Positions 11,816-51,301 of a stretch of 51,301 nucleotides of DNA are shown here, piece by piece (within the stretch, counting starts at the first letter, position 1; the number at the start of each line of letters is the position of its first letter). The notes under the pieces were generated by a model. That model was not told the DNA's origin. It worked only from the letters and a program-made list of their open reading frames with translations, and ran no database searches. A program made the translations under genes and the position numbers. This stretch comes from an uncultured Eubacteriales bacterium. GTDB lineage: Bacteria; Bacillota; Clostridia; Oscillospirales; Ruminococcaceae. The DNA lies in NCBI GenBank assembly GCA_959605275.1, contig CAUHFD010000001.1:1-51301 (forward strand), written 5' to 3'.

Positions 11816-11833
11816 TTTTAGGAGCAAGGTATC

Positions 11834-17924: not shown

Positions 17925-17973
17925 TTGCAAGCGGACGGGCATATACCGGTCGTAATTGGAGGGAACATTTCAA

Positions 17974-18837: not shown

Positions 18838-18899
18838 TAGCTGATTTGTCAATAGGATAAGCAATATAAAACGGTTCCATGAAAGGATTGGTTTCCATA

Positions 18900-23744: not shown

Positions 23745-23786
23745 ATGACCGGATTTCAGGTTGTACTGTTCAAATGGCAAAGATAA
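23745..23786 (+). promoter_or_regulatory. 13-codon upstream mini-ORF overlapping the permease start codon (possible translational coupling device)
   Basis: ATG 23745 sits 7 nt after AAGGTGA (23731-23737) and encodes MTGFQVVLFKWQR. Its stop is at 23784-23786. The permease ATG at 23774 has no SD of its own. Confidence 0.3.
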
Positions 23787-34858: not shown

Positions 34859-34887
34859 TTGACAAACATATTGATATGCGGTATACT
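34859..34887 (+). promoter_or_regulatory. sigma-A type promoter for the 35016 gene
   Basis: TTGACA (34859-34864), a 17-nt spacer, then TATACT (34882-34887), 129 nt upstream of ATG 35016 (AGGAGG SD at 35003-35008). Confidence 0.55.
34869..34878 (+). promoter_or_regulatory. fifth copy of [A/T]ATTGATATG, inside the promoter spacer
   Basis: TATTGATATG at 34869-34878. The extended palindrome is CATAT-TG-ATATG at 34867-34878. This is the same 10-mer family as at 3654, 3751(-), 3846 and 4004. Confidence 0.4.
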
Positions 34888-35015
34888 GACGATAAAAGAA
34901 AAGAGAATTTTTGACCACACGAGTAACTAACGCGCTTTGCGATTGCGTTGTATCTGTTGGTTATGAATTCAGGTCAGTTTCAGTACATATTATTATATTG
35001 CTAGGAGGATTACTG

Positions 35016-38000
35016 ATGAAAGTGCGTAAAAAAATTATTGCAGTTTTACTTTCTGTTGCTATGTTGTCAACAACAACCATACATTCATTGTTGTTGGCAG
35101 GCGCAGGCGATGTCCCCGAAAAAACAGCGTATGCAACCTACCGGGTGGAAGATGCAGATGGATTTTCCGAACAGTTTGATTTTGAAAATGCCAATGATGG
35201 AACAGGAGGAAAAAGCGCCTGCGGTAACGCTTTGGGGCGATATTTCATGTTTAAAAACGTGGATTTCGGGGATAACGTTCTTAATGGTGTTGTTTTTGAA
35301 GCAGCGTGTGCTGCCGGTGGTGCAGGTGCGGATGGATATTACAGCCAACTACTTGAAATTCGCATTGATTCTTTGGATGGTCCGATTATTGGTGGATACA
35401 CCTCGAAGAATACCGGCGGATGGCAGAATTGGCAAGACCAGAATGGTTTTATTAATGATAAAATCAGTGGTAAACATGATGTGTATTTTCGTTATTTAAA
35501 CAACGCGGGAAATATTAACCGTGTAAAGTTTACCAGCGGAGAACGCTTTAAATATGCTTATGATTGGTATAATGCAGTAGAGGATGCTGATTCGGAATTA
35601 ACGTATGCGCCGATTATCTCTGGTGCAGAAAATTACGGTCAGTCGGAATATGGAAACAAAAATATTTCTGATGCGGATTATACAGGTCACTCTTTTGCTA
35701 TTAAAGATGTTGATTTTTGCAAGGGCATTTTAGGCGGCGTAGCGGTACGCTATACTACAGCCGCCGGTGGTCCTGACGGTGTTCCGTTGGGACAGCAAAT
35801 GGAAATTTGGATTGATGGTGATTCCACAGATGCGGGAGGCACTCAGATTGGTGCTTTTTACGGTCGTTCGACAGGCGGCTGGACGGATTCATGGAAAACC
35901 ATTAATGGTGTAATTACTGAAGAAGTCGACGGGGTACATACGGTTTATTTTAAATTTTTGAAGCATGATGGTCGTATCAATGCAATTTCTTTTTTGAAAA
36001 AAAATACGACTGTCATAGACCCCTTTGCAGCTCCTTTTAACGCAGTTGATGCGGATATTAACGTAGGACTTGGTTACGAAGGCGATACGAATTTACGCGG
36101 AACCGGTGGTTCTGGTTGGGTTGGTCAGTATTTCGGGTTTGAAAATCTAGATTTTGGAAGAGATGGACTGGGCGCTATCACCATTAGCCAGGCGACACCT
36201 AATGATTTAGATGGCGTATGCATTGAAGTGTACATGGACAGCCCAAATGGTACAAAAATAGGCGAATTTAGTGGATTGAAAACCGGCAACTGGAACAATT
36301 GGCAGGATGCCAATGTTACGGCGCTGACAAAGATTACCGGTGTGCACACTATCTATTTTGTTTTTAAACAGCAGGTAGATTTAAATATTCATACAGTGAA
36401 GTTTACCAAAGCAGAAAAAGTAAATCGCAGTGCCTATAAGCGATTTTATATCTTTAACGAGTGGGACGATCAGCAAGATATGTACAACGAAACCCACTCT
36501 ACCAGTGACGGCGGTACAGAAGCCAATGTAAATGCTAAAACGGCCGGAGCATGGTGGAAATTCGAAGATATTGATTTTGGTGAAAATGAGTTGGGCGGAG
36601 TAACCTTCTCCGAAGCAACCGCTACTGCCGGCGAGGTTGGTACTATGCTGAATACTCGTTTAAGCATTTGGGTAGACGGTAAAAATGCGAATGAAGGCGG
36701 CACAAAAATCGGCAGCTTTGCGCCGAAGCAAACTGGCGGTTGGCACAATTATGAAAATGTGGATGGAAAAATTGTGCAGAGCGTTAGCGGTGTCCATGAT
36801 GTTTATTTTGTTTGTGATGATGGTCAGTATAACCTGACTTGGGTGCAGTTTAAAAAAGGCACTGTGGATGACAATCAAGATCCGGAAGCTGATCTGACGC
36901 AATATGATATCACAGTAAACAGTAATTTTGATGGCTATAATTCGGTGATAGATCGTTCGATGACAGGTGTTGGCGATGATTTACATCCAGCCTATAACTA
37001 TGGTGTATTTTTGATGAAATTGGACGATGGCACCTATCGCGCTTACAGCGGTGGTCGCTGGCGTTCGGAAAAAGGCGATGGAGATCACGTCATTCTGTAT
37101 GCTTCCGATACCGGCAAGGGATATACATGGAATATGGTTGGTGATGGTCCCGTTTTCTGGCAGGGTCAGGAAGAAGGCGTAGCTGATAAATGGTATTCCA
37201 AAAATCAGCTGGAACCGGAAGTAATGAAGTTGCCGGATGGCACCTGGATTATGTACTCTCAGTGTGAAATCGAGGGCGGCACGCCAATCGATGATGTGGC
37301 GGGAACACCTTCGCAAAATGGCATCTGGGCGGATCGTATTCAGTTATTAACCAGCAAAGATGGTATTACTTGGACGCGAAAGACCGATCGTGGTGTAATT
37401 ACCAATATTCCGGAGGCACAAACCACATCGTTCCATCATCAGGAAATGCTTTATGTTCCATGGGATAAAGATGGGAAATGCTATTGGATGTATGTGGCTT
37501 TAGCATATAAAGGTGTAAACCAAGGCTTTATACGTATTCGCTCTTCCAGCTATGATACATTTAATTTTAATGATCGAGAAGCAGTTGGCGGTATGACACA
37601 GTTGGGAAATCAAATCGGATATTTAAAAGAAGCTCCTGGCGGTGTGATTTTTGTTCGTACCACCATGATGGATTCCAATGGTCGCATTGTGCCAGCGTTA
37701 CAGTATTCAGGGGATGGATTAACCTGGAATGCGCCGCAAACGATGTTGAAAGGATCAGAGAATAACGAATTTAACAAGAATTGTTATTTCGTGGGTTTCT
37801 CCACTATTAATGGTACCGGTCAAATTGAGTATCTGGGCAATAATAAATGGGCATTCCTGTACGCCGCAACCACAGCCAACAGTCCGGTGGCCTTAAGCGA
37901 AAATGAAGGTTGGGGCATTTGGAAATCGCAGATTGGCGGCGGTAGTGCCACGCTCACGCTGAGTGTAAAAGATCAGCCGCAAAATCCCAATTACAATCTG

Positions 38001-39182
38001 TATAAAATCAGCACCGGTAAAACAGATGATATTATTTCCACCCTCTTCCCGGTACAAATGCAGGTGGAAGAAGACGCGCAATCTGCTATTATTCATGAGT
38101 GGAGTGTGGATGATACCTCTGTTGCCATTATTGATAATAAAGGCGTGTTGACACCGAAAAAAGCCGGAACCGTTTTAGTTACATTGAAAGCGGACGGCCG
38201 AAGCAAAACTTGCATGATTTCCATCAAAGAAGGAATCCCAACTTTGGAGACAGATGATGTCAGAGTGCTTAAAGGAAGCACGAAGCAAATGACATTCAAG
38301 ATTGCTCTGAAGGATGCAGAGGAAAAATATACTACTACATTGGATGCTTCCAAAGTTGATTGGTCTGTTTCGAATACCGGTCTTGCAACTATCAACGAGA
38401 CAGGATTGGTAACGGCTAAATCAAATGGAAAAGTCAAAGTTGTTGCCGGCTTAAAAGATAATCCTAAGATAAAAGCAGAATTAGAATTAACGATTGTGAA
38501 TGGCTATATCGATATAGAATTACAAAATTCTTCCAACATCGATTCGATTTCTGCTGATATGACCCCACGTATGACGGCAATATCGTATTCCATTGGCAGC
38601 AAAGAAATTGTCTGGAGCGTGGATGAGAAAAAAGCAACTATAAAAGATTTAAACAATGTTGATACACCCGAAAACAATTCTAATATTAAGGTGATGTTTA
38701 AAGACAGCGGAAAAATTGTGTTCCGTGCATCTTTAAAAGATTATCCGGAGGTGTATTCCGAAGTAGTATTTACAGTAATTCCGACAAAGTTGGAATTAAG
38801 TATGGCGTTGGATAATGCAACTTATTTTGATATGAATGATTATACTGCACTTCGATGGAATAACTTGCAAAAGGCAATCAAAGTGGCACGTGCAGTGTAT
38901 GATGATGCGGATGCGACACAAGCTGAAATTAATGAAGCCGTTGCTTTATTGGAACGTGTTGTTTCTGAACTGGAGCTGGCAGATGATGTACAGACGCCGG
39001 CGATTCCGGATCAAATCGGAGGTTCTGCAACAAAACCTGAAAATTCAGAGAAACCAAGTGATCCTTCGATTCCTGATACCTTTAATGATAGTTTGGAAAT
39101 TTTCATGAAATTATTGCTTTTGGGCGCTGCTGCCGCAGTCATTTATAAAACATCCATGAAGAAAAAAAAGTTTGCAGAATAG
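35016..39182 (+). CDS. 1388-aa cell-surface multi-domain protein: 4 CBM6/35-like modules, an Asp-box (BNR-like) beta-propeller putative glycosidase, Ig-like (Big_2) domains, a helical module and a C-terminal TM anchor
   Basis: Signal peptide MKVRKKIIAVLLSVAMLSTTT. CBM6 hallmark TGGWQNWQD / TGGWTDSWK / TGNWNNWQD / TGGWHNYEN. Asp-box SKDGITWT and the related GDGLTW. Big_2-like VDDTSVAIIDNKGVLTPKKAGTVLVTLKA. The C-terminus is LLLLGAAAAVIYKTSMKKKK. Confidence 0.7.
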   Translation: MKVRKKIIAVLLSVAMLSTTTIHSLLLAGAGDVPEKTAYATYRVEDADGFSEQFDFENANDGTGGKSACGNALGRYFMFKNVDFGDNVLNGVVFEAACAAGGAGADGYYSQLLEIRIDSLDGPIIGGYTSKNTGGWQNWQDQNGFINDKISGKHDVYFRYLNNAGNINRVKFTSGERFKYAYDWYNAVEDADSELTYAPIISGAENYGQSEYGNKNISDADYTGHSFAIKDVDFCKGILGGVAVRYTTAAGGPDGVPLGQQMEIWIDGDSTDAGGTQIGAFYGRSTGGWTDSWKTINGVITEEVDGVHTVYFKFLKHDGRINAISFLKKNTTVIDPFAAPFNAVDADINVGLGYEGDTNLRGTGGSGWVGQYFGFENLDFGRDGLGAITISQATPNDLDGVCIEVYMDSPNGTKIGEFSGLKTGNWNNWQDANVTALTKITGVHTIYFVFKQQVDLNIHTVKFTKAEKVNRSAYKRFYIFNEWDDQQDMYNETHSTSDGGTEANVNAKTAGAWWKFEDIDFGENELGGVTFSEATATAGEVGTMLNTRLSIWVDGKNANEGGTKIGSFAPKQTGGWHNYENVDGKIVQSVSGVHDVYFVCDDGQYNLTWVQFKKGTVDDNQDPEADLTQYDITVNSNFDGYNSVIDRSMTGVGDDLHPAYNYGVFLMKLDDGTYRAYSGGRWRSEKGDGDHVILYASDTGKGYTWNMVGDGPVFWQGQEEGVADKWYSKNQLEPEVMKLPDGTWIMYSQCEIEGGTPIDDVAGTPSQNGIWADRIQLLTSKDGITWTRKTDRGVITNIPEAQTTSFHHQEMLYVPWDKDGKCYWMYVALAYKGVNQGFIRIRSSSYDTFNFNDREAVGGMTQLGNQIGYLKEAPGGVIFVRTTMMDSNGRIVPALQYSGDGLTWNAPQTMLKGSENNEFNKNCYFVGFSTINGTGQIEYLGNNKWAFLYAATTANSPVALSENEGWGIWKSQIGGGSATLTLSVKDQPQNPNYNLYKISTGKTDDIISTLFPVQMQVEEDAQSAIIHEWSVDDTSVAIIDNKGVLTPKKAGTVLVTLKADGRSKTCMISIKEGIPTLETDDVRVLKGSTKQMTFKIALKDAEEKYTTTLDASKVDWSVSNTGLATINETGLVTAKSNGKVKVVAGLKDNPKIKAELELTIVNGYIDIELQNSSNIDSISADMTPRMTAISYSIGSKEIVWSVDEKKATIKDLNNVDTPENNSNIKVMFKDSGKIVFRASLKDYPEVYSEVVFTVIPTKLELSMALDNATYFDMNDYTALRWNNLQKAIKVARAVYDDADATQAEINEAVALLERVVSELELADDVQTPAIPDQIGGSATKPENSEKPSDPSIPDTFNDSLEIFMKLLLLGAAAAVIYKTSMKKKKFAE
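35127..36860 (+). repeat. four tandem ~140-aa CBM6-like modules (protein-level repeat)
   Basis: Each module ends with ...HDVYFRYLNNAGNINRVKF / HTVYFKFLKHDGRINAISF / HTIYFVFKQQVDLNIHTVKF / HDVYFVCDDGQYNLTWVQF. The DNA copies are diverged. Confidence 0.6.
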
Positions 39183-39194
39183 GGGGAAACCAGA

Positions 39195-40820
39195 ATGAAA
39201 TTTAGAGGGAAAAGTTGTTTGACAATTATTATTTCATTGTTGATGACAGTTTCTATGGTTGGATGCGGAGGAGGAGGCAACACCTCTTCCGTTGTCAGCA
39301 AAAACAACAATGATTCATCTGTTGAGAGTTCTGCAGACACAGAAGGTGCGAACTCCGGTGATGCATCGCTTAACGGTACGATATCTGAAAATACTTCCGG
39401 TGCCGCAAACAATGAAGCTTCGGATAAAGACACGGCAAATAATAGCGGAACCAATAATGCAGCCACTTCCAGCAAAGCAAATAATGATAAAATACTGGAT
39501 AAGATTCCAGGGGCAGGTACTATTATTAATTCCAAAAATTACGACATGAAGGGAGCTACTGTAAAAATCGGTAAATGGTACGGTTTCCATGAAGCAACCG
39601 GTACCGACGAAACCGCGAAACGGCAAAAAGCAATCAACGAAAAAATCGAAAAAACCTTTAATTGCAAGTTGCAATTTGTTGAAGTAAAATCCGGCTCTGA
39701 TCCTTCTTTGAAGGCATCTATTTTGTCAGGAAAGCCCAAAGTGGATTTCTTTGGCGTTCAAGGAATCGGCACTTTTTATGATTTATATTCCGCCGGATGT
39801 TTAATGCCGTTAGATAGCGTTTCTGGAATGAATATCAAGGATACTTCCAGATTTATTTTGCATGACGAGACAAAATTCAATGGGAAATATTATGGAGTAG
39901 GTCAAAAAGTTTATGGATGGTTAAATTTAAATTTCAATAACATCTTAATGTGTAATTTTGATTTAACAGCACAAGCCGGTTATCCCGCCAGTACTATTTA
40001 TGGTTGGATGAACAGTGGTCAATGGACTTGGGACAAATTTGAGGAAGTCTGCAAGGCTGTTTCCAAAATCAGTGGAAAATATGGCATCAGTGATTTGGAT
40101 CAGAATAAAATGTATGGCTTTGATTTGAGTTATGAACTTTATTCTTCCATGTTATATTCCAATAATACCGACTGGGTTATTAAGAAAAATGACGGTTTTG
40201 TTTTCAACGGTGGGTCTAAAGAAGCACTGGATGTTTTAAATCGATATGCGTCTTGGGCAAATCCCAACACTGGGTTTGTGAAATTTACCAAAACGGCATA
40301 TGACGATTTCCAAAACGGAAAAACAGCTTTTCTGGCGAATATTTATCCGTTGCCGATTATTGCTACATGGGCTTCCGGATCTTATAAAACCGGTGCGTTG
40401 TATTTCCCGAAAGGTCCGAATGCGACCAATTACGTTTCTAAAGCCTATGAATCATTATTTGTTGTTATACCGAAAGGTGTAAGCAACTTTAATGCAATCG
40501 GTGCAATCGCAAATGCGTTTTGCACACCGCTTTATTCCGATGCGGAAAGCCGTACATTGTGTAAAAATGATGTTATGAAGACCGCAAAGCTAACAGAATC
40601 AGTTAATGCAATGATGAAAATGTTTGATGATAAGAGTGCATATTCTTATCCCACGTCGTTATATGGTACAGCGGCCGGGTTAGGTATTGGTGAAAGCAGC
40701 AGTAAACTCGGATGGTTTGATTATGTGCGTAAAGTGGCACAAGGAGAAATGACAGCTCAGTCCGCAATAGATGCCTTTAGTTCGCGTGCAAATAACGTGC
40801 TGGCATCTACTTATAACTAA
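39195..40820 (+). CDS. extracellular solute-binding lipoprotein, sugar ABC transporter (SBP2 of locus B)
   Basis: Lipobox TVSMVGCGGGGN, N/S-rich linker. Paralog of 10325-11815. Confidence 0.75.
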   Translation: MKFRGKSCLTIIISLLMTVSMVGCGGGGNTSSVVSKNNNDSSVESSADTEGANSGDASLNGTISENTSGAANNEASDKDTANNSGTNNAATSSKANNDKILDKIPGAGTIINSKNYDMKGATVKIGKWYGFHEATGTDETAKRQKAINEKIEKTFNCKLQFVEVKSGSDPSLKASILSGKPKVDFFGVQGIGTFYDLYSAGCLMPLDSVSGMNIKDTSRFILHDETKFNGKYYGVGQKVYGWLNLNFNNILMCNFDLTAQAGYPASTIYGWMNSGQWTWDKFEEVCKAVSKISGKYGISDLDQNKMYGFDLSYELYSSMLYSNNTDWVIKKNDGFVFNGGSKEALDVLNRYASWANPNTGFVKFTKTAYDDFQNGKTAFLANIYPLPIIATWASGSYKTGALYFPKGPNATNYVSKAYESLFVVIPKGVSNFNAIGAIANAFCTPLYSDAESRTLCKNDVMKTAKLTESVNAMMKMFDDKSAYSYPTSLYGTAAGLGIGESSSKLGWFDYVRKVAQGEMTAQSAIDAFSSRANNVLASTYN

Positions 40821-40832
40821 TATGTAGATAAA

Positions 40833-40870
40833 GGCAAATCCGGAGAAATCTCCGGATTTGCCGGTGTTTT
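40833..40870 (+). terminator. strong rho-independent terminator/attenuator after the SBP gene
   Basis: GGCAAATCCGGAGA (40833-40846) pairs with TCTCCGGATTTGCC (40849-40862), followed by GGTGTTTTATGTTGTTTT. Confidence 0.75.
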
Positions 40871-40911
40871 ATGTTGTTTTAATTTTGTTTTAAAGGCAAG
40901 GAGTGCTGTAC

Positions 40912-42372
40912 ATGAGAGGACGACAAGGTATTTTGACAGCAGTGATAGCCATATGTTTGACCACTTCGGCTGCTGCTGCCACGCCATATCAAAATTACAC
41001 CTATGATAAAAGTCAAGAACCCCAAGCAGAACCACAGGCTTATGTACCGGTACAAGCTGTTAGCGGCGTGATGGCCGGAACTATCGATTTTTCTGAACCG
41101 CAGGATATTTTTGTTGCTGAAAATTCCAACATTTATATTGCTGATACCGGCAATAATCGAATTGTTGTTTTAAATAAAGAGATGCATTTTGTAGAAGAAA
41201 TCAAAGAATTTCAAAATAATGGGCAGATTGATACCTTTCGAAAACCTTCGGGCGTTTACGTTACAGAGGAAAATGAACTTTATATAGCAGATACAGAAAA
41301 CCAGAGAATAGTTGTGTTACAGGCAAACGGTTCTTTGAAAAAAATTGTCAGAGAGCCGAAAACATTGGATGGAGAACTTCCATATACTTACAATCCGATT
41401 AAAATTGCTGTAGATTTTGCAGACAGGATTTATGTGGTTTCTAAGAATTGCAGTAATGGGATTATTGAATTTGACAGGGACGATTCTTTCCTCGGATATT
41501 ACGGGGCAGTTCAAACACAACCAGATTTAATGTATTTGTTTTGGAAATCTATTGCAACTGAGGCGCAAAAGGCAGCTATGACGTTGACTATTCCTACTGA
41601 ATACAGCAGTCTGGATATTGATGCTAAAAGTTTCATTTACGGAACTGTTAGTGCAATCGATACCGATAATTTTAGTTCGTCTATGTTTATTCATAAGTTG
41701 AACCCGATAGGATCCGATGTTCTCAAGAGAAATGGTTTCGCAGATCCGATGGGAGATGTCAAATACATAAAAGAAAATGAAAATGGGATACCTGACATTT
41801 CTAAATTGTGTGATGTATCTGTGCAGGGCAATGGAGTGTATTCGGTATTGGATTCAAATAAAGGTCGGGTTTTTACCTATAATGATGCCGGAGAGTTGCT
41901 TTATATTTATGGGGGTATCGGTGAAAATTTAGGTACGTTCGGGAATCCGATTGCTATTGATGTTACTGCAGATAAACACAGCCTGGTGTTGGACAGTAAG
42001 TATAACCAAATTGTCGAATTTAAGCCGACAGAATATGCTAAATTGACGCTTCAAGCGATTCAATCTCATGCTGAACGGAAATATGATGATGCAGCAAATT
42101 TTTGGAAAGACGCCTTAAAGTACACTTCTGAATCCAGTGTTGTATTTAAAGAAATCGGTAATGTTTATTATAATCAAGGGTTATATGATAAAGCAATGCA
42201 ATATTACAAATTGGCATATGATAATGTAAGTTACTCGAATGCATACAAATATTGGAGAATGGAGTTCCTTTCCAAAAATTTCGGTATATTTATGACTTCT
42301 CTGATAGTGATTATCGGGATATTGATTGTGATTAAGGTCATCTTTAGAAAAAGAGCAAAAGAAAGGCTGTGA
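40912..42372 (+). CDS. extracytoplasmic NHL-repeat beta-propeller/TPR protein with C-terminal TM anchor (triad member 1, copy B)
   Basis: AAGGAG SD 8 nt upstream of ATG 40912. IYIADTGNNRIVVLN, LYIADTENQRIVVLQ. YDKAMQYYKLA is followed by the TM helix IFMTSLIVIIGILIVIKVIF. Confidence 0.75.
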   Translation: MRGRQGILTAVIAICLTTSAAAATPYQNYTYDKSQEPQAEPQAYVPVQAVSGVMAGTIDFSEPQDIFVAENSNIYIADTGNNRIVVLNKEMHFVEEIKEFQNNGQIDTFRKPSGVYVTEENELYIADTENQRIVVLQANGSLKKIVREPKTLDGELPYTYNPIKIAVDFADRIYVVSKNCSNGIIEFDRDDSFLGYYGAVQTQPDLMYLFWKSIATEAQKAAMTLTIPTEYSSLDIDAKSFIYGTVSAIDTDNFSSSMFIHKLNPIGSDVLKRNGFADPMGDVKYIKENENGIPDISKLCDVSVQGNGVYSVLDSNKGRVFTYNDAGELLYIYGGIGENLGTFGNPIAIDVTADKHSLVLDSKYNQIVEFKPTEYAKLTLQAIQSHAERKYDDAANFWKDALKYTSESSVVFKEIGNVYYNQGLYDKAMQYYKLAYDNVSYSNAYKYWRMEFLSKNFGIFMTSLIVIIGILIVIKVIFRKRAKERL

Positions 42373-43019
42373 TAAAATTGGTGAGTGATTTTCAGTTGAA
42401 ATCAAGTCTGAAAATGGCAATCTATACTATTTTTCATCCATTTAATGGTTTTTGGGATTTGAAACATGAAAAAAAGGGAAGCTTTTTAAAAGCAAATATC
42501 ATCTTGATTATGTTGATTATCACCTTTACATTGCGCAGCCAGTTTACGGGGTTTGTATTAGACATGTCGGAGCCGACAGATTTTAATTTGTTCTATCAAA
42601 TTACCAGCCTTGTGTTGCCTTTCTTGATATGGTGTATCGCTAATTGGTGTATTACAACACTTGTTGATGGAGAAGGAAATTTTCGAGATATTTATATTAC
42701 TACTGCATATGCGTTGATTCCATTGATTTTGTTCAATATTCCGATGGTGATCATCAGTAATATCATTACCATCGAAGAAAGCGCGTTTTATTCGATTCTT
42801 GATACAGCGTCAATCATATGGTCTGCATTTTTACTATTTTCCGGAATTTTGACCATTCATCAATTTTCAGTAAAAAAGACGTTGTTAACGATAGTCATCG
42901 CTGTACTTGGAATGATGATTATGATTTTTATTTTGCTTTTGTTTTTTACGTTGGTTCAAAATATGTTTAATTTTTGTCGATTGATTTGGGCTGAAATCAG
43001 TATTCGCCTCGGCTCTTGA
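42369..43019 (+). CDS. Yip1-family multipass membrane protein (triad member 2, copy B)
   Basis: GTGA overlap with the upstream stop; alternative starts are TTG 42378 and GTG 42381. FHPFNGFWDLKHEKKGS...WCIANWCITTLVDGEGNFRDIY. Confidence 0.7.
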   Translation: MIKLVSDFQLKSSLKMAIYTIFHPFNGFWDLKHEKKGSFLKANIILIMLIITFTLRSQFTGFVLDMSEPTDFNLFYQITSLVLPFLIWCIANWCITTLVDGEGNFRDIYITTAYALIPLILFNIPMVIISNIITIEESAFYSILDTASIIWSAFLLFSGILTIHQFSVKKTLLTIVIAVLGMMIMIFILLLFFTLVQNMFNFCRLIWAEISIRLGS

Positions 43020-43068
43020 TGAACCGCTATGATTATGAAATTGCAAAAAAGAAAGGATCGATCGCGGT

Positions 43069-45690
43069 ATGAAACGAAAACTGAGGTATCAAGCTGTTTC
43101 CATTGCTTTGGTACTGATTTTGACAATGATTGCCATTCCAGGCTGCGGCAAACAGGAAACAGAAAAATCAGACGATATAATCGATGGCTTCACCGGATTG
43201 AATGATGTGTATGATACTGAAATCAAAACGAGAGGAAATTTGCAGGAGGTTGCCGCTCAAGGAGAATATTCTTTGTTGGTGAACGGCGCTACTGCTGAAA
43301 TTACGGTAAAAAACCAAAGGTCAGGAAATGTTTGGACTACCAATCCGGTTAATCGAAGTGAAGATACAACAGCAAACGGTACAAATATGGAATTGTTGCA
43401 TTCACAGGTTGCTGTGGAATACATAAGAACGAAAGACAATTTGCTTGTTCCGGTTAATAGCTATTCCGGCTGTATAGCATACGGACGTTATTGCTATTAT
43501 CAGGTGGATAACGGCATCGGAGTGCGATATGCACTGGGAGAGCCGATAACTATTTATATGATGCCTGAAGTGATTTCGGTAGAACGTTTTGAACAATTTG
43601 TTTCAAAATTGGACTCATTAGATCAAGACACCTTGCGTTATAACTATACTAAATTTTCTCTTCGGGAAATGACCGATGAAGGTACAAAAACAGCGTTGCT
43701 GGAAAAATATCCAATTTTGAAAAAAAGAGATATTTATGTTTTGGGCGGCAGTTCAATTGGTGCAGTAGAGGTTGGTGAAATTCTTGCACAGCAAATTGAC
43801 GAAACCTTTCGAAAAGCCGGATATGACATGGAGGACTTAAGGTTTGATTATGCTGATAATGGCATGGAAATGGAAGAAAAGGAAGATTATACGATTTATT
43901 TGTCAATAGAATATACGATTGATCAAGGTAAATTGAAAGTAACCATTCCACAAGATAGTATTCAGTATAATGATAAATATCTTTCTGTAAGCACCATTTC
44001 ATTACTCCCCATGTTCGGCGCAGAGGACAAAAAAGCAGAAGGAGATATTTTGCTTCCGGACGGATCCGGAGCCCTGATTCATTTTAACAACGGGAAAAAG
44101 AATGTACCTGCTTATAGCCGTCTTTTGTATGCTTCTGATAAAACGCTGGAGTCAAAAACGTATGATGCAACTCAGAATACATTGCTTCATATGCCGATTT
44201 TTGGATTAAGAACAACAGAAAAAGCTTTTGTAGCTGTCATAGAAAGCGGCGATACCGTTTCTGCTTTGCATGCAGATTCCAGTGGAAAATCCAATGATTA
44301 TAACTATGTTTATTCCAGCTTTAAAATGAAAGAATTTGACACGGTTAATGAATCTATTTTAAACATAGCCGGAAACCGGGTATATCAAAAAGTCCCCTTT
44401 GATAGTGATTTGCAAATTTCCTATCTGTTTTTGGAGGGATCAATCTCTTATGCAGATATGGCGGCAGCATATCGGAACTATTTAATAGAGAATAAATGTT
44501 TGTCAGTTCATCCGGCAGATGATACGGTTCCGTTATATCTTGATGTTGTTGGAGCGGTCACCTATAAAACTACCTTTGCCGGAATTCCATATGAAACCAA
44601 TAAGCCGTTAACTACCTACCAACAAACAATCGACATTCTCAATGATTTGAAAAGTGCGGGCATTGAAAATCTTATGTTAGGGTATATCGGTGGTTTGAAC
44701 GGAGGATTAAGCAATACCGTCGGAAATAAAGTGTCCGCAATTAATCAATTAGGCGGGCGAAAAGCATTTCAGAGACTATTGAATTATGTGAAAGAAAATG
44801 ATATTGATTTTTATCCCGAAATAGAGTTTCAATATGTGAAAAACGATAAATGGTTTGATGGATTCAGCAGCAAAAGTGACGTTTCCAAAAATCTTTTGCA
44901 AAATCCTGCCAAGGATTACACTTACGATCTGGCAACCAAGCAAAAAGCAGCAGGGAAATTTCGTTGGATAGTCACACCGTCTAAGTTGGCAGAGAACACT
45001 GATAAATTGTTAGAATCAGCAAAAAAATCACAACTGAATAGTTGGAATATTGCCTCCTTAAGTTCGGAATTAAACTCAGATTTTTCCGAAAAAAATATTA
45101 TAGATCGTCAGCAGGTTCAGGATATTGTAAAAGAACAGCTCCAAAAAATGCAATCCGCCGGTGTTTCTTTGTCGGTAAGCGGGGCAAATGTGTATACATT
45201 ACAATGGGCAGATATCGTGAAAAGCATGCCGATGGGGTCAGGCGGGAGCTATATATTGGATGCAAGCATTCCTTTTTATCAGATTGTTTTGCATGGCGTG
45301 TTGCCGTATACCTCTATTGCACTCAACTTAGGGGAAAACGGACAGGACGATTATCTTCGGGCAATCGAATATGGAGCGATTCCATATTATCAAATAATGG
45401 ATGCGGAAAACTTTGCATTAAAGGATACGGATTCCACATATTACGGAATTAATTATGATATGTGGAGGTTGCAGATGCTAAAATCTTATCAGGATGCCAA
45501 TAAAGTACTTGCTGATTTGCAAGACAAACGGATTATTGACCATAAACAGTTCATGCAAGATGTTGCCGTAACTACGTATGAGAATCATGAATCTATCATT
45601 GTAAACTATTCGGAACAACCTGTTACTGTTGCAGGCACGGATGTCCCTGCAAAAAGTTATGTCAGAGTAGGAGGAAATGTGAATGAATAA
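43069..45690 (+). CDS. 873-aa DUF5696-like extracytoplasmic lipoprotein (triad member 3, copy B)
   Basis: Lipobox-like LTMIAIPGCGKQ. DILLPDGSGALI, DIDFYPEIE and IPFYQIVLHGV are shared with 21113-23677. Confidence 0.6.
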   Translation: MKRKLRYQAVSIALVLILTMIAIPGCGKQETEKSDDIIDGFTGLNDVYDTEIKTRGNLQEVAAQGEYSLLVNGATAEITVKNQRSGNVWTTNPVNRSEDTTANGTNMELLHSQVAVEYIRTKDNLLVPVNSYSGCIAYGRYCYYQVDNGIGVRYALGEPITIYMMPEVISVERFEQFVSKLDSLDQDTLRYNYTKFSLREMTDEGTKTALLEKYPILKKRDIYVLGGSSIGAVEVGEILAQQIDETFRKAGYDMEDLRFDYADNGMEMEEKEDYTIYLSIEYTIDQGKLKVTIPQDSIQYNDKYLSVSTISLLPMFGAEDKKAEGDILLPDGSGALIHFNNGKKNVPAYSRLLYASDKTLESKTYDATQNTLLHMPIFGLRTTEKAFVAVIESGDTVSALHADSSGKSNDYNYVYSSFKMKEFDTVNESILNIAGNRVYQKVPFDSDLQISYLFLEGSISYADMAAAYRNYLIENKCLSVHPADDTVPLYLDVVGAVTYKTTFAGIPYETNKPLTTYQQTIDILNDLKSAGIENLMLGYIGGLNGGLSNTVGNKVSAINQLGGRKAFQRLLNYVKENDIDFYPEIEFQYVKNDKWFDGFSSKSDVSKNLLQNPAKDYTYDLATKQKAAGKFRWIVTPSKLAENTDKLLESAKKSQLNSWNIASLSSELNSDFSEKNIIDRQQVQDIVKEQLQKMQSAGVSLSVSGANVYTLQWADIVKSMPMGSGGSYILDASIPFYQIVLHGVLPYTSIALNLGENGQDDYLRAIEYGAIPYYQIMDAENFALKDTDSTYYGINYDMWRLQMLKSYQDANKVLADLQDKRIIDHKQFMQDVAVTTYENHESIIVNYSEQPVTVAGTDVPAKSYVRVGGNVNE

Positions 45691-46606
45691 AAGAAAAAAG
45701 CTGGTATCTTTGGCGAATAAAAGGGCGGTTTGCGGTTATTTCTTTATTTTGCCTTTTTTAATCGGCTTTGTTTTTCTGATTCTATCTCCTTTTTTGCTCT
45801 ATATGGTAATGGGATTTAATAAGATCACTGCGGGAGAATCCGGTATTACTTTAACAAATGTAGGATGGAAAAATTATGTTGATGTTCTATTCAATGAGCC
45901 TGATTTTTTTCAAAATGTAGCATCCAGTATCGGCAATCTGCTTATTACCGGAATATGTGTCATTATTTTCAGCTTTTTTATGGCGGTTATTTTGAATCAA
46001 AAATTTCATGGTCGCGGTATAGCTCGTGCAGTGTTTTTTCTGCCGGTGGTAATAGCCTCCGGTGCGTGTGCACTGAGTCAAAACGATGCACTGTCCAGTT
46101 CTGCGTTGGCAGCAATTACAGATATCAGCACATCTCTGGGTGACGGAACCGGAACCTCTACTTTGTCAACCATATTCATTGACATGTTGGGCGTCTCTTT
46201 CGGAGATGGTTTTGTTGAGATCATTGGGCAGGTACTGGATCAGTTTTACAACATTGTTATGATGTCAGGCGTACAGATATTAATTTTTTTGGCAGGATTG
46301 CAGGGGATTTCTCCATCTTTATATGAAGCTTCTCAAATTGACGGTGCGACCGGATGGGAAAATTTTTGGAAAATTACCTTTCCCTTGATTAGTCCGTTAA
46401 TATTAGTAAACAGCGTTTATACTATTGTTGATTATATGGGTGGTGCAAGTAATTCTGTTATCAACCAATTATATAAATATTCGACAGAAGGTTCTAAATA
46501 CGGATTAAGTTCAGCTATGGGAACGATTTATTTTGCAATCGTATATGTTATATTAGGCGTCGTATTTGTCGTGATGTCTCGCTTTGTGCATTATGAAGAA
46601 CGATAA
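45683..46606 (+). CDS. sugar ABC transporter permease (MalF-like; F2 of locus B)
   Basis: 8-nt overlap with the upstream gene and a GGAGGAA SD. LYEASQIDGATGWENFWKITFP. Confidence 0.8.
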   Translation: MNKRKKLVSLANKRAVCGYFFILPFLIGFVFLILSPFLLYMVMGFNKITAGESGITLTNVGWKNYVDVLFNEPDFFQNVASSIGNLLITGICVIIFSFFMAVILNQKFHGRGIARAVFFLPVVIASGACALSQNDALSSSALAAITDISTSLGDGTGTSTLSTIFIDMLGVSFGDGFVEIIGQVLDQFYNIVMMSGVQILIFLAGLQGISPSLYEASQIDGATGWENFWKITFPLISPLILVNSVYTIVDYMGGASNSVINQLYKYSTEGSKYGLSSAMGTIYFAIVYVILGVVFVVMSRFVHYEER

Positions 46607-46618
46607 AGGAGAAAAACA

Positions 46619-47548
46619 ATGAAAAAAATAGATATTGTTAAAGCAAAACGAATGACGCAGAATATTTGGCCGATCATTCGCATGGTGTTAGTCGTTGGAA
46701 TTGCTTTTATGATTCTGTATCCTTTATTTGTGAAATTTTCCACATCAATAAAAAGCGATGCTGACATGCATGATCCAACCGTGTTTTTTATTCCCAAGAA
46801 TCCTACACTGGGAAATTTTCGCACAGTAATACAAAGTGTTTCTTATTTATCGACTATGTTTAAGACCATTCTTTTTGTTGGATGTGTTGCATTGATGCAG
46901 CTGGCATCTTGTACGCTGACAGCATATGGTTTTGCCAGATTTCGCTTTCCGGGCAGGAATTTCCTGTTTGCTTTGGTGGTTTTTACTTTAGTTATACCGC
47001 CACAGGCAATTTTCCTTCCTTTGTATTTAAAATTTCGCTTTTTCAATATTTTGGAGATTTTTAAATTCGGAGGGACTTTAAGCGGAATTGCCTTAACCGA
47101 TACTATATGGCCGTTTGTTTTGTTATCCATTACTGCGGTAGCCTTTAAAAATGGGTTATATATCTTTATGCTGCGGCAACATTTTTATAATATTCCAGCT
47201 TCTTTGGAGGAAGCTGCATATATTGATGGCTGCGGTGTCTTTAAAACATTTTATCGGATTATTCTGCCGGGTGCGATACCGATGCTTATTACCGTTTTTC
47301 TATTTGCTTTTGTTTGGCAATGGAATGACTTTTATTATACGCAGATGTTGGCACCAAGTTTACCGACATTGAACGTAAAGCTTGCAGGGATGACATTAAG
47401 CGGTTTGGATTCTGCAGCAGGCAGTATGATGGGAAGTATGCTGCAAGCACCAAAATTTTTGCTGTTAATAGCACCGCTGGTTGTTTTATATTTATTTACA
47501 CAGCGCTTTTTCACTGAAAGTGTAGAACGAAGCGGTTTGGTAGGATGA
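46619..47548 (+). CDS. sugar ABC transporter permease (MalG-like; G2 of locus B)
   Basis: AAGGAG SD. LEEAAYIDGCGVFKTFYRIILPGAIP. Paralog of 9306-10271. Confidence 0.8.
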   Translation: MKKIDIVKAKRMTQNIWPIIRMVLVVGIAFMILYPLFVKFSTSIKSDADMHDPTVFFIPKNPTLGNFRTVIQSVSYLSTMFKTILFVGCVALMQLASCTLTAYGFARFRFPGRNFLFALVVFTLVIPPQAIFLPLYLKFRFFNILEIFKFGGTLSGIALTDTIWPFVLLSITAVAFKNGLYIFMLRQHFYNIPASLEEAAYIDGCGVFKTFYRIILPGAIPMLITVFLFAFVWQWNDFYYTQMLAPSLPTLNVKLAGMTLSGLDSAAGSMMGSMLQAPKFLLLIAPLVVLYLFTQRFFTESVERSGLVG

Positions 47549-47573: not shown

Positions 47574-50438
47574 ATGCGGCGGGTAAGAAGAAAAACAAAT
47601 CGAATAGGAATCGTATTACTGGTCGGAATATTATTTTGGCAAAGTATAGTTGGAACGGTCTCGGCGGAGCAAGAGGTATCTGGTTCTGCGGCAGATGATA
47701 TTTCTGCGACCTCCCAAATGACATATCGCACTTATTTGCAACAATATACGGACAAAATATCCCCGCAAACTACGATTTTCATACCGTTAGAGAATTATTC
47801 TGCATCGCAAAATAACGGTGCAGAAATGACCGACGATCTTTTGCTTGAAGGAAATCCTGTTTTAAAAACAGGAGAGACCGGTTATGTAGAATGGGAATTT
47901 TCAGTAGAACAAGAAGGATTGTATAATCTCTCAATGGATTATTATCCGATAGAGGGAAAAGGCGCTTCCATTGTCCGAAAGTTGTTTATTGACGGAAAAG
48001 TCCCGTTTGAAGAATGTAAAAATTTAACGTTTAGCCGCTCTTTTCAAAACAAAGACGAAATTCAAACTGATGAATCAGGTAATCAAATTCGTCCGCAACA
48101 AGAAGAAAAGCCCCGATGGTTGAGAACAGATTATTATGATCATATTGGTTATTACCAGGATCCGCTTTGTTTTTATCTTACGCAAGGAACGCATATCATT
48201 CGTTTAGAATCGGTGCGTGAGCCGGTGACAATCGGAAGTTTGAAATTTTATCAAGCTCGGAAACCCCAAAAGTATCAAGCTCCGGCTCGGGCGGATGACA
48301 GCAGCGGATATATCCGTATACAAGGAGAGGATGCAGACTATAAATCAGATAATCTGGTTTACCCGATTAACGATAAATCTTCTCCGGCAACCGATCCCAG
48401 CAGCTATGATACCATTTTGCTCAATGTCATTGGAGGAACAAAATGGCAGAACAACGGACAATGGTTAGAGTGGAACTTTAATATTACACAAGCAGGATAT
48501 TACAAAATAGGAATAAAATTTCGACAAAATGTAAATGCCGGGCAGGCATCATACAGAAAAGTGTATCTGGATGGAGAGGTTCCCTGCGAAGAATTAAACA
48601 GTGTTTCTTTTCCGTATAATTCTAAATGGCAAACCAAAGTACTTGGAGACGGAAAACAAGATTTTTATTTTTATTTGGCTGCAGGAGAACATCAAATTAA
48701 ATTGGAGGTCGTTTTGGGCGAGCTTTCTGATTTAGTGCAGGAGGTGAATGACAGCATTACTCGCCTAAATCAAATTTATCGTAATCTTTTGATGATTATC
48801 GGCAAAAATCCGGATACCGGTCGTGATTACCAATTCCAAAAGACCTCTTCTGCCGAAATACAAGGATTGAAAGATGAATGCCAACGATTACGGAAAATAT
48901 ACGATCGTTTTACACAGCTTAATGATATGGGCGGTTATCAATCTCAAATTTTAGAAACGATTATTGACCTTACTGACCAAATGAGCAGCAAACCGGATAA
49001 AATAGCTAAAATGTTCGGTACATATGCGGATAATATCAGTTCACTCGGAAATTGGCTGACAACGGCGAAAAGCCAACCTCTGGAAATAGATTTTATTGAA
49101 ATTGCGACGCATGAAAAACAGTTTGCATCTCCATCGGCTGGTTGGTTTTCGTATCTGTCATTTGTTTGGAATCAATTTATTGCCTCGTTTGTTGTGGATT
49201 ACAATGCAATCGGTACCATGGGAACTAATAACAAAACTGTCAGCGTTTGGCTGAGTACCGGTCGAGATCAGGCAAATGCACTAAATCAAATGGCAAGCAA
49301 CTATTTTACTGCTGAAACCGGAATCGGCGTAAATTTGCAACTTGTGGCAGCGAACACCTTGCTCACAGCCACCTTGGCGGGAAAAGGACCTGATGTTGCT
49401 TTGTCTATGTCCCAAAGTGATCCGATGAATTACGCAATCCGCGGAGCAGTGAAAGACATTTCAGGTATGGAAGGTTTTGCAGAAGTCAAAAAGCGCTTTC
49501 AGGAAAGTGCAATGACACCGTTAACCTTTGATGGAAAAGTATATGGATTGCCTGAAACACAGACGTTTCCGATGATGTTTTATCGGGAAGACATTTTACA
49601 GCAACTAGGTTTAGAAGTGCCGCAGACATGGGAAGATGTAATAGCAATGCTCCCGGTTTTACAGAAGAAAAACCTGAATTTTGCACTTCCGTTGCCGATG
49701 AGCACTACTGCGGTCGGTGTAGGACTGCCGGTATATGCAACATTGTTTTACCAGCTGGGAGGTAAGTTTTATAACGAGGACAGCACAGCAACAGTCCTTA
49801 ATACCAGCATGGCTGCCGAAGCATTTGAACAATGGGTCAGTTTTTATAATGACTATTCTCTGCCTAGTCAATTTGACTTTAACACTAGATTTCGCTCCGG
49901 AGAAATCCCGATAGGAATTGCTGATTACGGAACATACAATGCACTATCTGTTTTTGCGCCGGAATTAAACGGCATTTGGAAATTTGCACCGATTCCCGGA
50001 ATACGGATGGAAGATGGGACAATTAACAGAACCGCTGCAAGCAGTATTACAGCCAGTGTTATTATGAACGGTGCCAAAGACGTGGACAGCGCATGGGAAT
50101 TTTTAAAGTGGTGGACCTCTGCAAAAACACAAGAAGATTATGGGAAGGAATTGGAAAGTATCATGGGTACTGCCGCACGTTACCAGACTGCAAATGTAGA
50201 AGCATTATACCATATACCATGGAATACAGAGGATTTTGACACCCTAATGATACAGTGGAAGCAGACCAAAGGAATTCCGGAAATTCCGGGCAGTTATATG
50301 ACTTCTCGTTATATTGATTTTGCCTTTAAGCAAATGGTTGTTAACGGTGCAGAAGACAGCGGACGTGCATTGCTTGATGCTGCTAGGCTGATAGACAACG
50401 AAATCACTGCAAAACGAGAAGAGTTTGGCTTATCCTGA
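47574..50438 (+). CDS. giant (954 aa) extracellular solute-binding protein with two N-terminal beta-sandwich modules (paralog of 13998-16901)
   Basis: GLYNLSMDYYPIEGKGASIVRKLFIDGKVPFEE, KWQNNGQWLEWNFNITQAGYYKIGIKFRQN and YGLPETQTFPMMFYREDIL are collinear with copy A. Confidence 0.75.
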   Translation: MRRVRRKTNRIGIVLLVGILFWQSIVGTVSAEQEVSGSAADDISATSQMTYRTYLQQYTDKISPQTTIFIPLENYSASQNNGAEMTDDLLLEGNPVLKTGETGYVEWEFSVEQEGLYNLSMDYYPIEGKGASIVRKLFIDGKVPFEECKNLTFSRSFQNKDEIQTDESGNQIRPQQEEKPRWLRTDYYDHIGYYQDPLCFYLTQGTHIIRLESVREPVTIGSLKFYQARKPQKYQAPARADDSSGYIRIQGEDADYKSDNLVYPINDKSSPATDPSSYDTILLNVIGGTKWQNNGQWLEWNFNITQAGYYKIGIKFRQNVNAGQASYRKVYLDGEVPCEELNSVSFPYNSKWQTKVLGDGKQDFYFYLAAGEHQIKLEVVLGELSDLVQEVNDSITRLNQIYRNLLMIIGKNPDTGRDYQFQKTSSAEIQGLKDECQRLRKIYDRFTQLNDMGGYQSQILETIIDLTDQMSSKPDKIAKMFGTYADNISSLGNWLTTAKSQPLEIDFIEIATHEKQFASPSAGWFSYLSFVWNQFIASFVVDYNAIGTMGTNNKTVSVWLSTGRDQANALNQMASNYFTAETGIGVNLQLVAANTLLTATLAGKGPDVALSMSQSDPMNYAIRGAVKDISGMEGFAEVKKRFQESAMTPLTFDGKVYGLPETQTFPMMFYREDILQQLGLEVPQTWEDVIAMLPVLQKKNLNFALPLPMSTTAVGVGLPVYATLFYQLGGKFYNEDSTATVLNTSMAAEAFEQWVSFYNDYSLPSQFDFNTRFRSGEIPIGIADYGTYNALSVFAPELNGIWKFAPIPGIRMEDGTINRTAASSITASVIMNGAKDVDSAWEFLKWWTSAKTQEDYGKELESIMGTAARYQTANVEALYHIPWNTEDFDTLMIQWKQTKGIPEIPGSYMTSRYIDFAFKQMVVNGAEDSGRALLDAARLIDNEITAKREEFGLS

Positions 50439-50489: not shown

Positions 50490-51301
50490 ATGGAGTCTAT
50501 TATTCATACCGACAAAAACAGAAAAAGCAGTGTGAACAAGCGGGGGAAAGTTTCTTTAAGCAGGCGTATCTGGGAGTACCGTGCCTCTTATGTTTTGATT
50601 GCGCCGTTTTCCATTGTATTTTTTCTGTTTACCATCATTCCGGTGGTCATTGCGATTTGTTTTAGCTTTACATATTATAATGTTTTGCAATCACCGAAAT
50701 TTATCGGTTGGAATAACTATGTTAAATTGTTTTTTCAGGATGAAATATTTTTTACCGCAATAAAAAATACGTTGATTTTTGCGGTTGTTACCGGACCAAT
50801 CGGATATTTGCTTAGCTTTATCCTTGCATGGTTCGTTAATGAGCTGAATCCGAGGCTACGTGCATTTATGACGTTGTTGTTTTATGCACCGGCACTTTCC
50901 GGTGTCACTTATATTTGGACCATTATTTTTAATGGCGACCAATATGGCTATTTAAACTCTGTCTTATTGAATTTAGGATTACTGCAATCACCGATACAGT
51001 GGTTTGTAGATCCAGCGTATATGAAAATGGCAGTTATTGTTGTTATTTTGTGGAGCAGTATGGGCGTTGGATTTTTGGCGTTTATTGCAGGATTCCAAAA
51101 TGTAGATCGCACAATGTATGAGGCGGCGGCTGTGGATGGAATTAAAAACCGATTTCAGGAACTGTGGTATGTTACTTTGCCTGCAATGAAAGGACAGTTA
51201 ATGTTTTCTGCAGTGATGACGATTACCAGTTCTTTTAATATTGGGGATATTATCACACAGCTTTGCGGATTCCCGAGCTCTAACTATGCGGCGCATACCA
51301 T
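50490..51301 (+). CDS. sugar ABC transporter permease (MalF/LplB-like; F1 of locus B), 3' end cut by window edge
   Basis: It is not in the ORF track because no stop is reached. My own translation from ATG 50490 gives MESIIHTDKNRKSS...YVLIAPFSIVFFLFTIIPVVIAICFSF...MYEAAAVDGIKNRFQELWYVTLP, collinear with 16926-17924. Confidence 0.8.
   Translation, partial: MESIIHTDKNRKSSVNKRGKVSLSRRIWEYRASYVLIAPFSIVFFLFTIIPVVIAICFSFTYYNVLQSPKFIGWNNYVKLFFQDEIFFTAIKNTLIFAVVTGPIGYLLSFILAWFVNELNPRLRAFMTLLFYAPALSGVTYIWTIIFNGDQYGYLNSVLLNLGLLQSPIQWFVDPAYMKMAVIVVILWSSMGVGFLAFIAGFQNVDRTMYEAAAVDGIKNRFQELWYVTLPAMKGQLMFSAVMTITSSFNIGDIITQLCGFPSSNYAAHT

Follow-up and report, generated by a model that had tools for sequence, protein, structure and literature searches.

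In the described polysaccharide utilization loci (PULs) of Gram-positive bacteria, solute-binding proteins (SBPs), permeases, a surface protein with a glycoside hydrolase (GH) fold, carbohydrate-binding modules (CBMs) and LacI/GntR regulators are co-localized. These loci follow a logic of capture, trimming and import that is shared, by analogy, with the Sus-like utilisome of the Bacteroidota. In a different setting, YknW, a Yip1-family protein, modulates the assembly of the YknXYZ ATP-binding cassette (ABC) transporter (PMC4887032, PMC4338810). Among the glycosidases, the alpha-N-acetylgalactosaminidase NagBb of GH129 (5wzn) and the GH129-like 3,6-anhydro-D-galactosidase DagB (5opq) share a three-domain architecture, in which an N-terminal beta-sandwich is followed by a (beta/alpha)8 barrel and a C-terminal beta-sandwich. 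Of the two catalytic residues of NagBb, only the equivalent of Asp435 is conserved in DagB, where Glu517, Glu531 and Asp202 are among the catalytic residues and Asp202 comes from a helix in the N-domain of the partner monomer (PMC5698469). Here, we analyze a stretch of 51,301 nucleotides (the window; contig CAUHFD010000001.1 of assembly GCA_959605275.1, positions 1 to 51,301 of the forward strand) from an uncultured Eubacteriales bacterium of the Ruminococcaceae. It carries two diverged copies, A and B, of a gene trio that encodes an NHL beta-propeller protein with TPR repeats (NHL-TPR), a Yip1-family membrane protein and a protein of the DUF5696 family. The functional unit is not the trio but a nine-gene cassette to which it belongs.

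The original prediction described the three genes as a triad that recurs in the same order, in two anciently diverged copies whose products work together. Open reading frames (ORFs) and Pfam matches place NHL-TPR, Yip1 and DUF5696 in this order in both copies:

18879-20459, + strand: copy A NHL-TPR protein, 526 aa (Pfam NHL; BLASTP against copy B)
20456-21097, + strand: copy A Yip1 protein, 213 aa, with a 4-nt overlap between its start and the NHL stop (Pfam)
21113-23677, + strand: copy A DUF5696 protein, 854 aa, with an N-terminal transmembrane (TM) anchor and without the consensus residues W542, N544, E767 and H825 (Pfam PF18952)
40912-42372, + strand: copy B NHL-TPR protein, a beta-propeller protein that has a cleavable signal peptide and, at its C-terminus, a TM helix (Pfam NHL, E 7e-15; matches to PDB sequences)
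42369-43019, + strand: copy B Yip1-family membrane protein, 216 aa, five predicted TM helices (Pfam Yip1, E 2.3e-16; AlphaFold2 model, pLDDT 90.3)
43069-45690, + strand: copy B DUF5696 protein, 873 aa, with a lipobox-like IPGC and a predicted GH129/GH101-superfamily fold (Pfam PF18952, E 7e-176; AlphaFold2, Foldseek, hhalign)

The stop/start overlap GTGA at 42369-42372 is confirmed, and the overlap in copy A is likewise 4 nt long. All eight motif pairs quoted in the original prediction were found at equivalent protein positions in the two copies. BLASTP aligned the copies at E 3e-91 for NHL-TPR, 2e-76 for Yip1 and 3e-103 for DUF5696 (834 residues); the alignments run over the full length, so the similarity is not limited to TM or low-complexity segments. 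For the copy B NHL-TPR gene, the ORF finder started at a GTG at 40903, but the ATG at 40912, 10 nt after AAGGAG, is the likelier start. The copy B Yip1 gene has a second in-frame GTG at 42381, and on the near-identical contig L001 the gene caller took this one as the start.

Comparison across genomes changes the view of the triad as the unit. A scan with a Yip1 profile of one genome per species returned at least 591 loci, 80 of which were examined by calling ORFs, scoring them against the window proteins and clustering the leftover flanking ORFs. In essentially all of the 80, NHL, Yip1 and DUF5696 are direct neighbors, which bears out the proposal that their products work together. The trio is nevertheless only part of a larger set, with two ABC permease pairs (P1/P2 and P1'/P2') and two binding proteins, all of which are duplicated in the window. 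The recurrent order is large SBP, P1, P2, NHL, Yip1, DUF5696, P1', P2'. It is complete in 59 of the 80 loci and circularly rotated in four, and the remainder are subsets, mostly ended by a contig edge. Clustering of the flanking ORFs yielded a ninth conserved gene, encoding a lipoprotein binding protein of about 470 aa (the small SBP), in 61 of the 80 loci, where it lies directly before the large SBP or directly after P2'. A permease follows directly 3' of DUF5696 in essentially every locus whose contig extends there.

The rearrangements, those of the window copies included, are circular rotations that leave the gene set unchanged. Copy B reads small SBP, NHL, Yip1, DUF5696, P1', P2', large SBP, P1. 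Copy A reads P2', small SBP, an inserted GH29-like gene, large SBP, P1, P2, NHL, Yip1, DUF5696, P1'. All nine parts are present in both copies, the P2 of copy B being known from contig L001 because it lies beyond the window end. Two diverged cassettes also occur in other genomes (L002 and L061 in UMGS856, L021 and L028 in Pristimantibacillus PTI5), and the possession of several cassettes per genome seems common in the family. The carriers are Bacillota that range from soil Paenibacillus to gut and rumen Clostridia and halophiles. We found no description of the cassette in the literature searched. It is best restated as a widespread, uncharacterized variant of Gram-positive glycan-uptake loci, in which the trio is a conserved accessory core.

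On balance, we think it probable, by a modest measure, that the trio is the accessory core of a nine-gene Bacillota cassette that acquires extracellular glycans. This reading builds on the gene linkage, on the fusion of NHL to Yip1, on the GH129-superfamily fold and homology of DUF5696 and on the CBM-like modules of the large SBP. The cassette would supply two CUT1-type ABC importers without an ATPase of their own, with NHL-TPR, Yip1 and DUF5696 between them. One importer would consist of the large, CBM35-carrying SBP with P1/P2, and the other of the small lipoprotein SBP with P1'/P2'. The NHL-TPR protein is predicted to be a type-I membrane protein with its propeller and TPR repeats outside the cell, and DUF5696 to be extracellular and held by a membrane or lipid anchor; signal and anchor sequences likewise place the SBPs outside. 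NHL-TPR and Yip1, which the fusions show to be a single unit, would form one membrane complex that may act as a scaffold holding DUF5696, and perhaps the lipid-less large SBP, beside the permeases. DUF5696 would bind, and most likely trim or release, oligosaccharide from polymer captured by the CBM modules. The products would then pass to the two importers, which would use an ATPase encoded elsewhere.

The transport genes of the two copies are as follows:

39195-40820, + strand: copy B small SBP, a solute-binding lipoprotein of 541 aa with the signal ...MVGC (small SBP hidden Markov model, E 1e-62)
45683-46606, + strand: copy B permease P1', first of the second pair (Pfam BPD_transp_1; 37.8 % identity to copy A P1')
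46619-47548, + strand: copy B permease P2' (Pfam BPD_transp_1; 42 % identity to copy A P2')
47574-50438, + strand: copy B large SBP, 954 aa, with a signal peptide without lipobox, CBM35/Golvesin_C-like N-terminal modules and a C-terminal CUT1-type SBP domain (Pfam SBP_bac_1, SBP_bac_8)
50490-51301, + strand: copy B permease P1, ending at the window edge (57 % identity to copy A P1; complete P1 and P2 on contig L001)
9156-10271, + strand: copy A permease P2', displaced upstream (Pfam BPD_transp_1; 42 % identity to copy B P2')
10325-11815, + strand: copy A small SBP, 496 aa (small SBP hidden Markov model, E 1e-120; Pfam SBP_bac_1)
13998-16901, + strand: copy A large SBP, 967 aa (Pfam)
16926-17924 and 17956-18837, + strand: copy A permeases P1 and P2 (Pfam BPD_transp_1; EAA-type loops)
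23774-24667, + strand: copy A permease P1' (Pfam BPD_transp_1; 37.8 % identity to copy B P1')

The hidden Markov model was built from the conserved SBP of about 470 aa found in 61 of the 80 loci; the copy B small SBP has no Pfam match. The ORF of the copy A P2' opens at a TTG, which puts its first 118 nt inside the preceding gene (7180-9273). Since its similarity to the copy B P2' sets in no earlier than ORF residue 84, the true start probably lies near 9350-9400. The large SBPs of the two copies are 38.5 % identical. Their C-terminal 400 residues or so form a CUT1 SBP, with the sugar-binding protein Lin1841 as the best PDB match (E 1e-29). In copy B, PDB matches are confined to residues 559-888, and the N-terminal half has no solved relative by sequence among PDB sequences. 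In that half, CBM_35 was matched in 9 of 25 orthologues and Golvesin_C in 11 of 25. The lipobox is absent from 64 of 69 large SBP orthologues, which motivates the idea that a scaffold tethers this protein.

The importers are assigned to the CUT1 type because SBP_bac_1/8 proteins are combined with BPD_transp_1 permeases, with EAA-type motifs in each of the four permease types. No ABC ATPase domain came up when the larger ORFs of the window were scanned with Pfam, and none was seen in the conserved cassette of the examined loci. Firmicute CUT1 systems commonly share an MsmX-type ATPase that is encoded elsewhere. Compared with described PULs, the cassette differs in having two permease pairs and two SBPs in one fixed arrangement, and in that one SBP reaches about 960 aa and carries CBM35-like modules. 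We know of no counterpart of the conserved pair of NHL-TPR and Yip1 in described loci. Unlike the Sus-like utilisome, the cassette lacks a TonB-dependent transporter, as these cells have no outer membrane.

The NHL-TPR protein matches Pfam NHL at E 2.8e-11 in copy A and 7e-15 in copy B, and its TPR repeats lie below the gathering score in Pfam. Against PDB sequences, it matches the NHL propellers of TRIM71, Thin and PknD as well as consensus TPR proteins, down to E 2.8e-25. The blade motif A-D-T-x-N-x-R is recurrent in the 79 orthologues. The predicted topology starts with a signal peptide, places the propeller and the TPR repeats outside the cell, and ends with a C-terminal TM helix followed by basic residues.

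The Yip1 proteins score 60.5 and 60.6 bits against PF04893, whose cut-off is 28.6. The AlphaFold2 model of copy B (pLDDT 90.3) has an amphipathic N-terminal segment with an invariant H-P-F...K motif, followed by five long helices. Foldseek found nothing below E = 1 for this model in the PDB, a single-sequence search of PDB sequences was also empty, and NCBIfam holds no family for Yip1 or DUF5696. A pair of cysteines in this protein had been proposed as a constrained and possibly functional feature. Among 38 sequences, C89 is present in 36, but C94 is replaced by S, G or A in 9, and the pair as such is therefore not under constraint. The invariant residues are instead W88, N92, W93, T96, T97, L98, G101, G103 and I108, and all 22 invariant columns are retained by both copies.

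NHL-TPR and Yip1 are encoded by a single ORF in 25 of 79 loci, and because of these fusions the two proteins probably form a complex. In the complete genome of Paenibacillus baekrokdamisoli, the fused protein has 685 aa, with Pfam matches to NHL at 62-85, TPR at 370-399 and Yip1 at 490-659. The literature searched on Yip1 with NHL and ABC proteins, or on Yip1 in Paenibacillus, contained nothing relevant. By family and context, the Yip1 protein can be likened to YknW, which is also a polytopic Yip1-family protein encoded in an ABC operon and a non-transporting accessory subunit (PMC4887032, PMC4338810). YknWXYZ, in contrast, belongs to the MacB-type exporters and includes a membrane-fusion protein and an ATPase of its own, whereas the Yip1 protein described here is accompanied by CUT1 importers and SBPs, with no ATPase gene in the locus. 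Unlike YknW, it is linked to an NHL-TPR ectodomain, in many loci by fusion. As its neighbors are CUT1 components only, the cassette does not look like a YknWXYZ-type exporter, and YknW serves as an analogy for the possible role of Yip1.

DUF5696 (PF18952) is a large family: clustered at 50 % identity, it counts 4263 representatives at E<=1e-30. The score is 569 bits for copy A (E 1e-170, model positions 2-612 of 612) and 587 bits for copy B (E 7e-176, positions 7-612 of 612), against a cut-off of 25.6. The contrast drawn earlier between a lipobox in copy B and a plain anchor in copy A holds: ...MIAIPGC fits the consensus L-x-G-C, although Pro at -2 is atypical, and copy A has no Cys. A lipobox-like motif occurs in 19 of 78 DUF5696 proteins, and the others have a plain hydrophobic N-terminus. 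An AlphaFold2 model built from a 67-sequence alignment reached a pLDDT of 91.5 and a pTM of 0.89. In a Foldseek search of the PDB with this model, GH129 structures ranked best (E 1.7e-29 to 1e-24, TM 0.68-0.73 on the target), with DagB 5opq at E 1.7e-29 and NagBb 5wzr at E 1.5e-25, followed by GH101, GH36, GH31 and GH13. The DUF5696 profile matched GH129 chains among PDB sequences at E 2.6e-10 and 3.9e-07, while a single-sequence search returned no match. Precomputed PF18952 matches are also present on GH129 fragments in the protein database.

Because hhalign and hmmsearch against these frameshifted fragments reached barrel strand 3 only, the full NagBb gene was taken from gut metagenome contigs, and its numbering was confirmed by Trp398 (PMC8106489). 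Against this sequence, hhalign aligned residues 257-858 of the DUF5696 profile with a probability of 97.9 % and E 5.6e-13. The high-confidence anchors are W542 with W324, IPFYQIVLHG with VPLYNLVYHD (H742 with H520), H825 with H597, and E392 with E184. DUF5696 and GH129 share, besides the three-domain architecture, a G-W motif after barrel strand 2, the motif P-(F/L)-Y-x-x-V-x-H and a His in the C-terminal domain. Sequence identity is only about 10-18 %, DUF5696 extends some 200 residues further at the N-terminus, and the two differ in their sets of invariant polar residues. DUF5696 is predicted to be anchored and extracellular, whereas NagBb is a soluble enzyme. By fold and homology, DUF5696 appears to be a divergent member of the GH129/GH101 glycosidase superfamily, and its catalytic activity is a prediction.

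The family alignment also revises the view of the acidic motifs LLPDGSG and DFYP as candidate functional sites. LLPDGSG is among the strongest motifs family-wide, and so is PFYQ (P330, G334 and P735 are invariant, and F736 is kept in 97 %). The Asp of DFYP, on the other hand, is not conserved; only Y-P of the consensus Y-P-D recurs in this region, and the following acidic residue is Gly in copy A. The near-invariant polar set comprises D260, D331, D357, E392, D671, R680, N707, D731, N753, E767, H825 and N846. Conservation is 99 % for D357, about 90 % for D671 (present in both copies), 97 % for E767 and 100 % for R680, N753 and N846.

The nine parts of the cassette have diverged to different degrees. 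Identity between copies A and B is 57 % for P1, 45-46 % for Yip1, 42 % for P2', 38 % for the large SBP, 38 % for P1', 34-36 % for NHL-TPR, 27 % for DUF5696 and 23 % for the small SBP. The two most diverged parts, DUF5696 and the small SBP, are predicted to lie outside the cell, and the three best conserved ones, P1, Yip1 and P2', are all membrane proteins. This pattern fits different substrates on a common chassis, and the two copies probably differ in glycan specificity. In a neighbor-joining tree of 77 DUF5696 proteins, the nearest partner of copy A comes from a metagenome-assembled genome of the Saccharofermentanales (L056) in which the gene order is the same. Copy B groups with L002, L005 and L006; its rotated order is common to L002 and L005, and L006 is too short to tell. 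Each copy therefore has nearer orthologues in other taxa, as expected from the ancient divergence proposed originally, and since their common ancestor spans 70 of the 77 leaves, the tree indicates old paralogous or xenologous lineages and not a recent duplication. A dN/dS comparison was run as had been suggested, and it is uninformative because dS is saturated (1.8 to 3.1 or undefined, with third-position identity of 31-43 %).

The original prediction saw no inactivating mutations. Neither copy has a stop or a frameshift, but while copy B keeps 68 of the 73 strongly conserved DUF5696 columns, copy A keeps 61 and thus deviates at 12. In the L056 orthologue (10693-13266), the four consensus positions missing from copy A are also lost, being I, K, M and F. 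Two of them, W542 and H825, are conserved in the GH129 enzyme NagBb. The shared loss points to a lineage-specific remodeling of a site partly conserved in GH129, not to decay. Copy A and L056 may belong to a DUF5696 subfamily with an altered or lost active site.

The surroundings of the two copies are rich in carbohydrate-related genes. Copy A is neighbored by FucU, GxGYxYP, GH29-like, GH29, GH38 and HAD genes and by a GntR/LacI-type regulator. The GH29-like / GH42M-like protein between its small and large SBP genes (663 aa, 11834-13825) is inserted in the same way in L056 (1559-3547). Two ORFs lie 5' of the gene for the GxGYxYP putative glycosidase and of the copy A cassette, one at 4065-5387 (440 aa, with an fn3 match only) and one at 5524-7062 (512 aa, no Pfam match). 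Copy B is preceded by a LacI regulator, a GH3 gene and a gene for a CBM6/CBM35 surface protein of 1423 aa, and on contig L001 a further ABC system and a GH20 gene lie downstream of it. The surface protein (34911-39182) has four CBM6 modules and one CBM35, in addition to Big_2 and FIVAR domains, and a TM anchor at its C-terminus; its central 350 or so residues have no Pfam match. The best sigma-70-like promoter of the region is at 34859-34887, just 5' of its gene, and this gene may head the copy B operon. One further element lies between the copy B small SBP and NHL-TPR genes:

40833-40862, + strand: terminator-like hairpin with a 13-bp stem, 8 G-C pairs and a following T-run

It may act as a partial terminator or attenuator that gives the binding protein in excess over the products of the downstream genes. 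In other loci, the flanking carbohydrate-active enzymes differ and include GH10, GH30, GH38 and GH43.

Several observations weigh against a glycan-acquisition cassette with DUF5696 as its enzyme. No single substrate can be named, because the flanking enzymes vary across loci, and the literature searched has no mention of DUF5696 or PF18952, biochemical data included. The large SBP system is not obligatory, since the reduced locus at 8453-16841 of contig L038 consists only of an NHL-Yip1 fusion, DUF5696, P1', P2' and the small SBP, and neither a large SBP nor P1 or P2 lies within 20 kb. This locus also hints that the importer formed by P1', P2' and the small SBP is the primary partner of the trio. 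Further points concern the active site, and they are the ground of the main rival, an unlikely one, in which DUF5696 is a catalytically dead, GH129-derived glycan binder and hydrolysis is left to the flanking GHs. The trio would then be a tether or assembly factor that anchors the large SBP, which may need one as it mostly lacks a lipobox, and that organizes or gates the two ABC translocons, with the action of YknW on YknXYZ as precedent. NagBb Asp521 pairs with the invariant Gly743 of DUF5696. The NagBb acid/base Glu478, located after barrel strand 5, falls on Ala706 (Gly/Ala in the family), and Glu479 falls on Asn707 (Asn in 64 of 67), at an alignment confidence of 3-4. The family reads G-G-N-A-Y here and the alignment, of moderate confidence, is anchored by the invariant R680, paired with R454, so that the GH129 acid/base Glu appears not to be conserved in DUF5696. 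The nucleophile stretch after barrel strand 4 (NagBb Asp435, DagB Asp486) is aligned at confidence 0. Position 663 carries Asp in 42 of 67 sequences but Gly in copy A and Ser in copy B, position 667 varies, and there is no invariant carboxylate at 663-667. An acid that migrates between 663 and 667 so as to keep the nucleophile was considered and rejected, because 12 of the 67 have no acid at 663, 666 or 667. Copy A, with its changes W542Y, N544K, E767A and H825Y (copy B numbering), and L056 nevertheless keep an intact cassette. What speaks for an active enzyme is that the near-invariant carboxylates and polar residues D357, D671, E767, R680, N753 and N846 are kept, a set more like an active site than a binding surface. 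Moreover, DagB 5opq also lacks the NagBb acid/base and draws a catalytic residue from its partner monomer (PMC5698469), and the loss of the canonical Glu does not, for that reason, imply a loss of activity.

Glycan acquisition with the trio as accessory core can also be set against accounts that leave the importers aside or turn them inward. If the three proteins were a self-contained machine that functions independently of its neighbors, with constraint visible in the Cys pair and the acidic motifs, one could explain that the genes are always adjacent and partly fused, that both copies are intact ORFs, and that LLPDGSG and PFYQ are found family-wide. We regard this as quite improbable, because the same ABC genes flank the trio in essentially all sufficiently long loci and the whole set rotates together. 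None of the 80 loci has a trio without a nearby ABC permease or binding-protein gene, even the reduced L038 locus retains P1', P2' and the small SBP, and neither the second Cys nor the DFYP Asp is conserved. The cassette could instead serve the envelope of the cell itself, in that DUF5696 would trim a cell-wall or capsular glycopolymer during recycling or remodeling and the importers would salvage the products. The highly conserved composition of the cassette across very different habitats, while flanking enzymes vary, would suit such a housekeeping role, as would the membrane-proximal position of all extracellular parts. Diverged cassettes, however, often number two or more per genome, as in the window, UMGS856 and Pristimantibacillus PTI5. 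In addition, LacI, GntR and AraC regulators and foraging-type proteins (GH29, GH38, GH3, GH10, GH30, GH43 and CBM6 proteins) adjoin, and the CBM35-like modules of the large SBP are typical of polysaccharide capture. A role in the envelope is thus very improbable. The glycan-acquisition reading has a bolder form, which is possible but doubtful: the parts would assemble into a stable surface-membrane supercomplex, which would be to Gram-positive bacteria what the utilisome is to the Bacteroidota. NHL-TPR/Yip1 would nucleate the two importers, tether the CBM-bearing SBP and position DUF5696, an enzyme that would found a new GH family whose catalytic residues have moved from their GH129 positions.

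The co-occurrence of two diverged copies in a single genome, with the DUF5696 site remodeled in one, is a natural experiment on specificity. If the supercomplex reading is true, it would give the first defined role of a bacterial Yip1 protein in nutrient import. More broadly, if the cassette works as proposed, many Firmicutes would forage for glycans with a fixed machine that combines two importers and a dedicated membrane scaffold, and bacterial Yip1 and NHL-TPR proteins would acquire a concrete function. A new GH family would also be defined, related to the mucin- and carrageenan-active enzymes of GH129/GH101.

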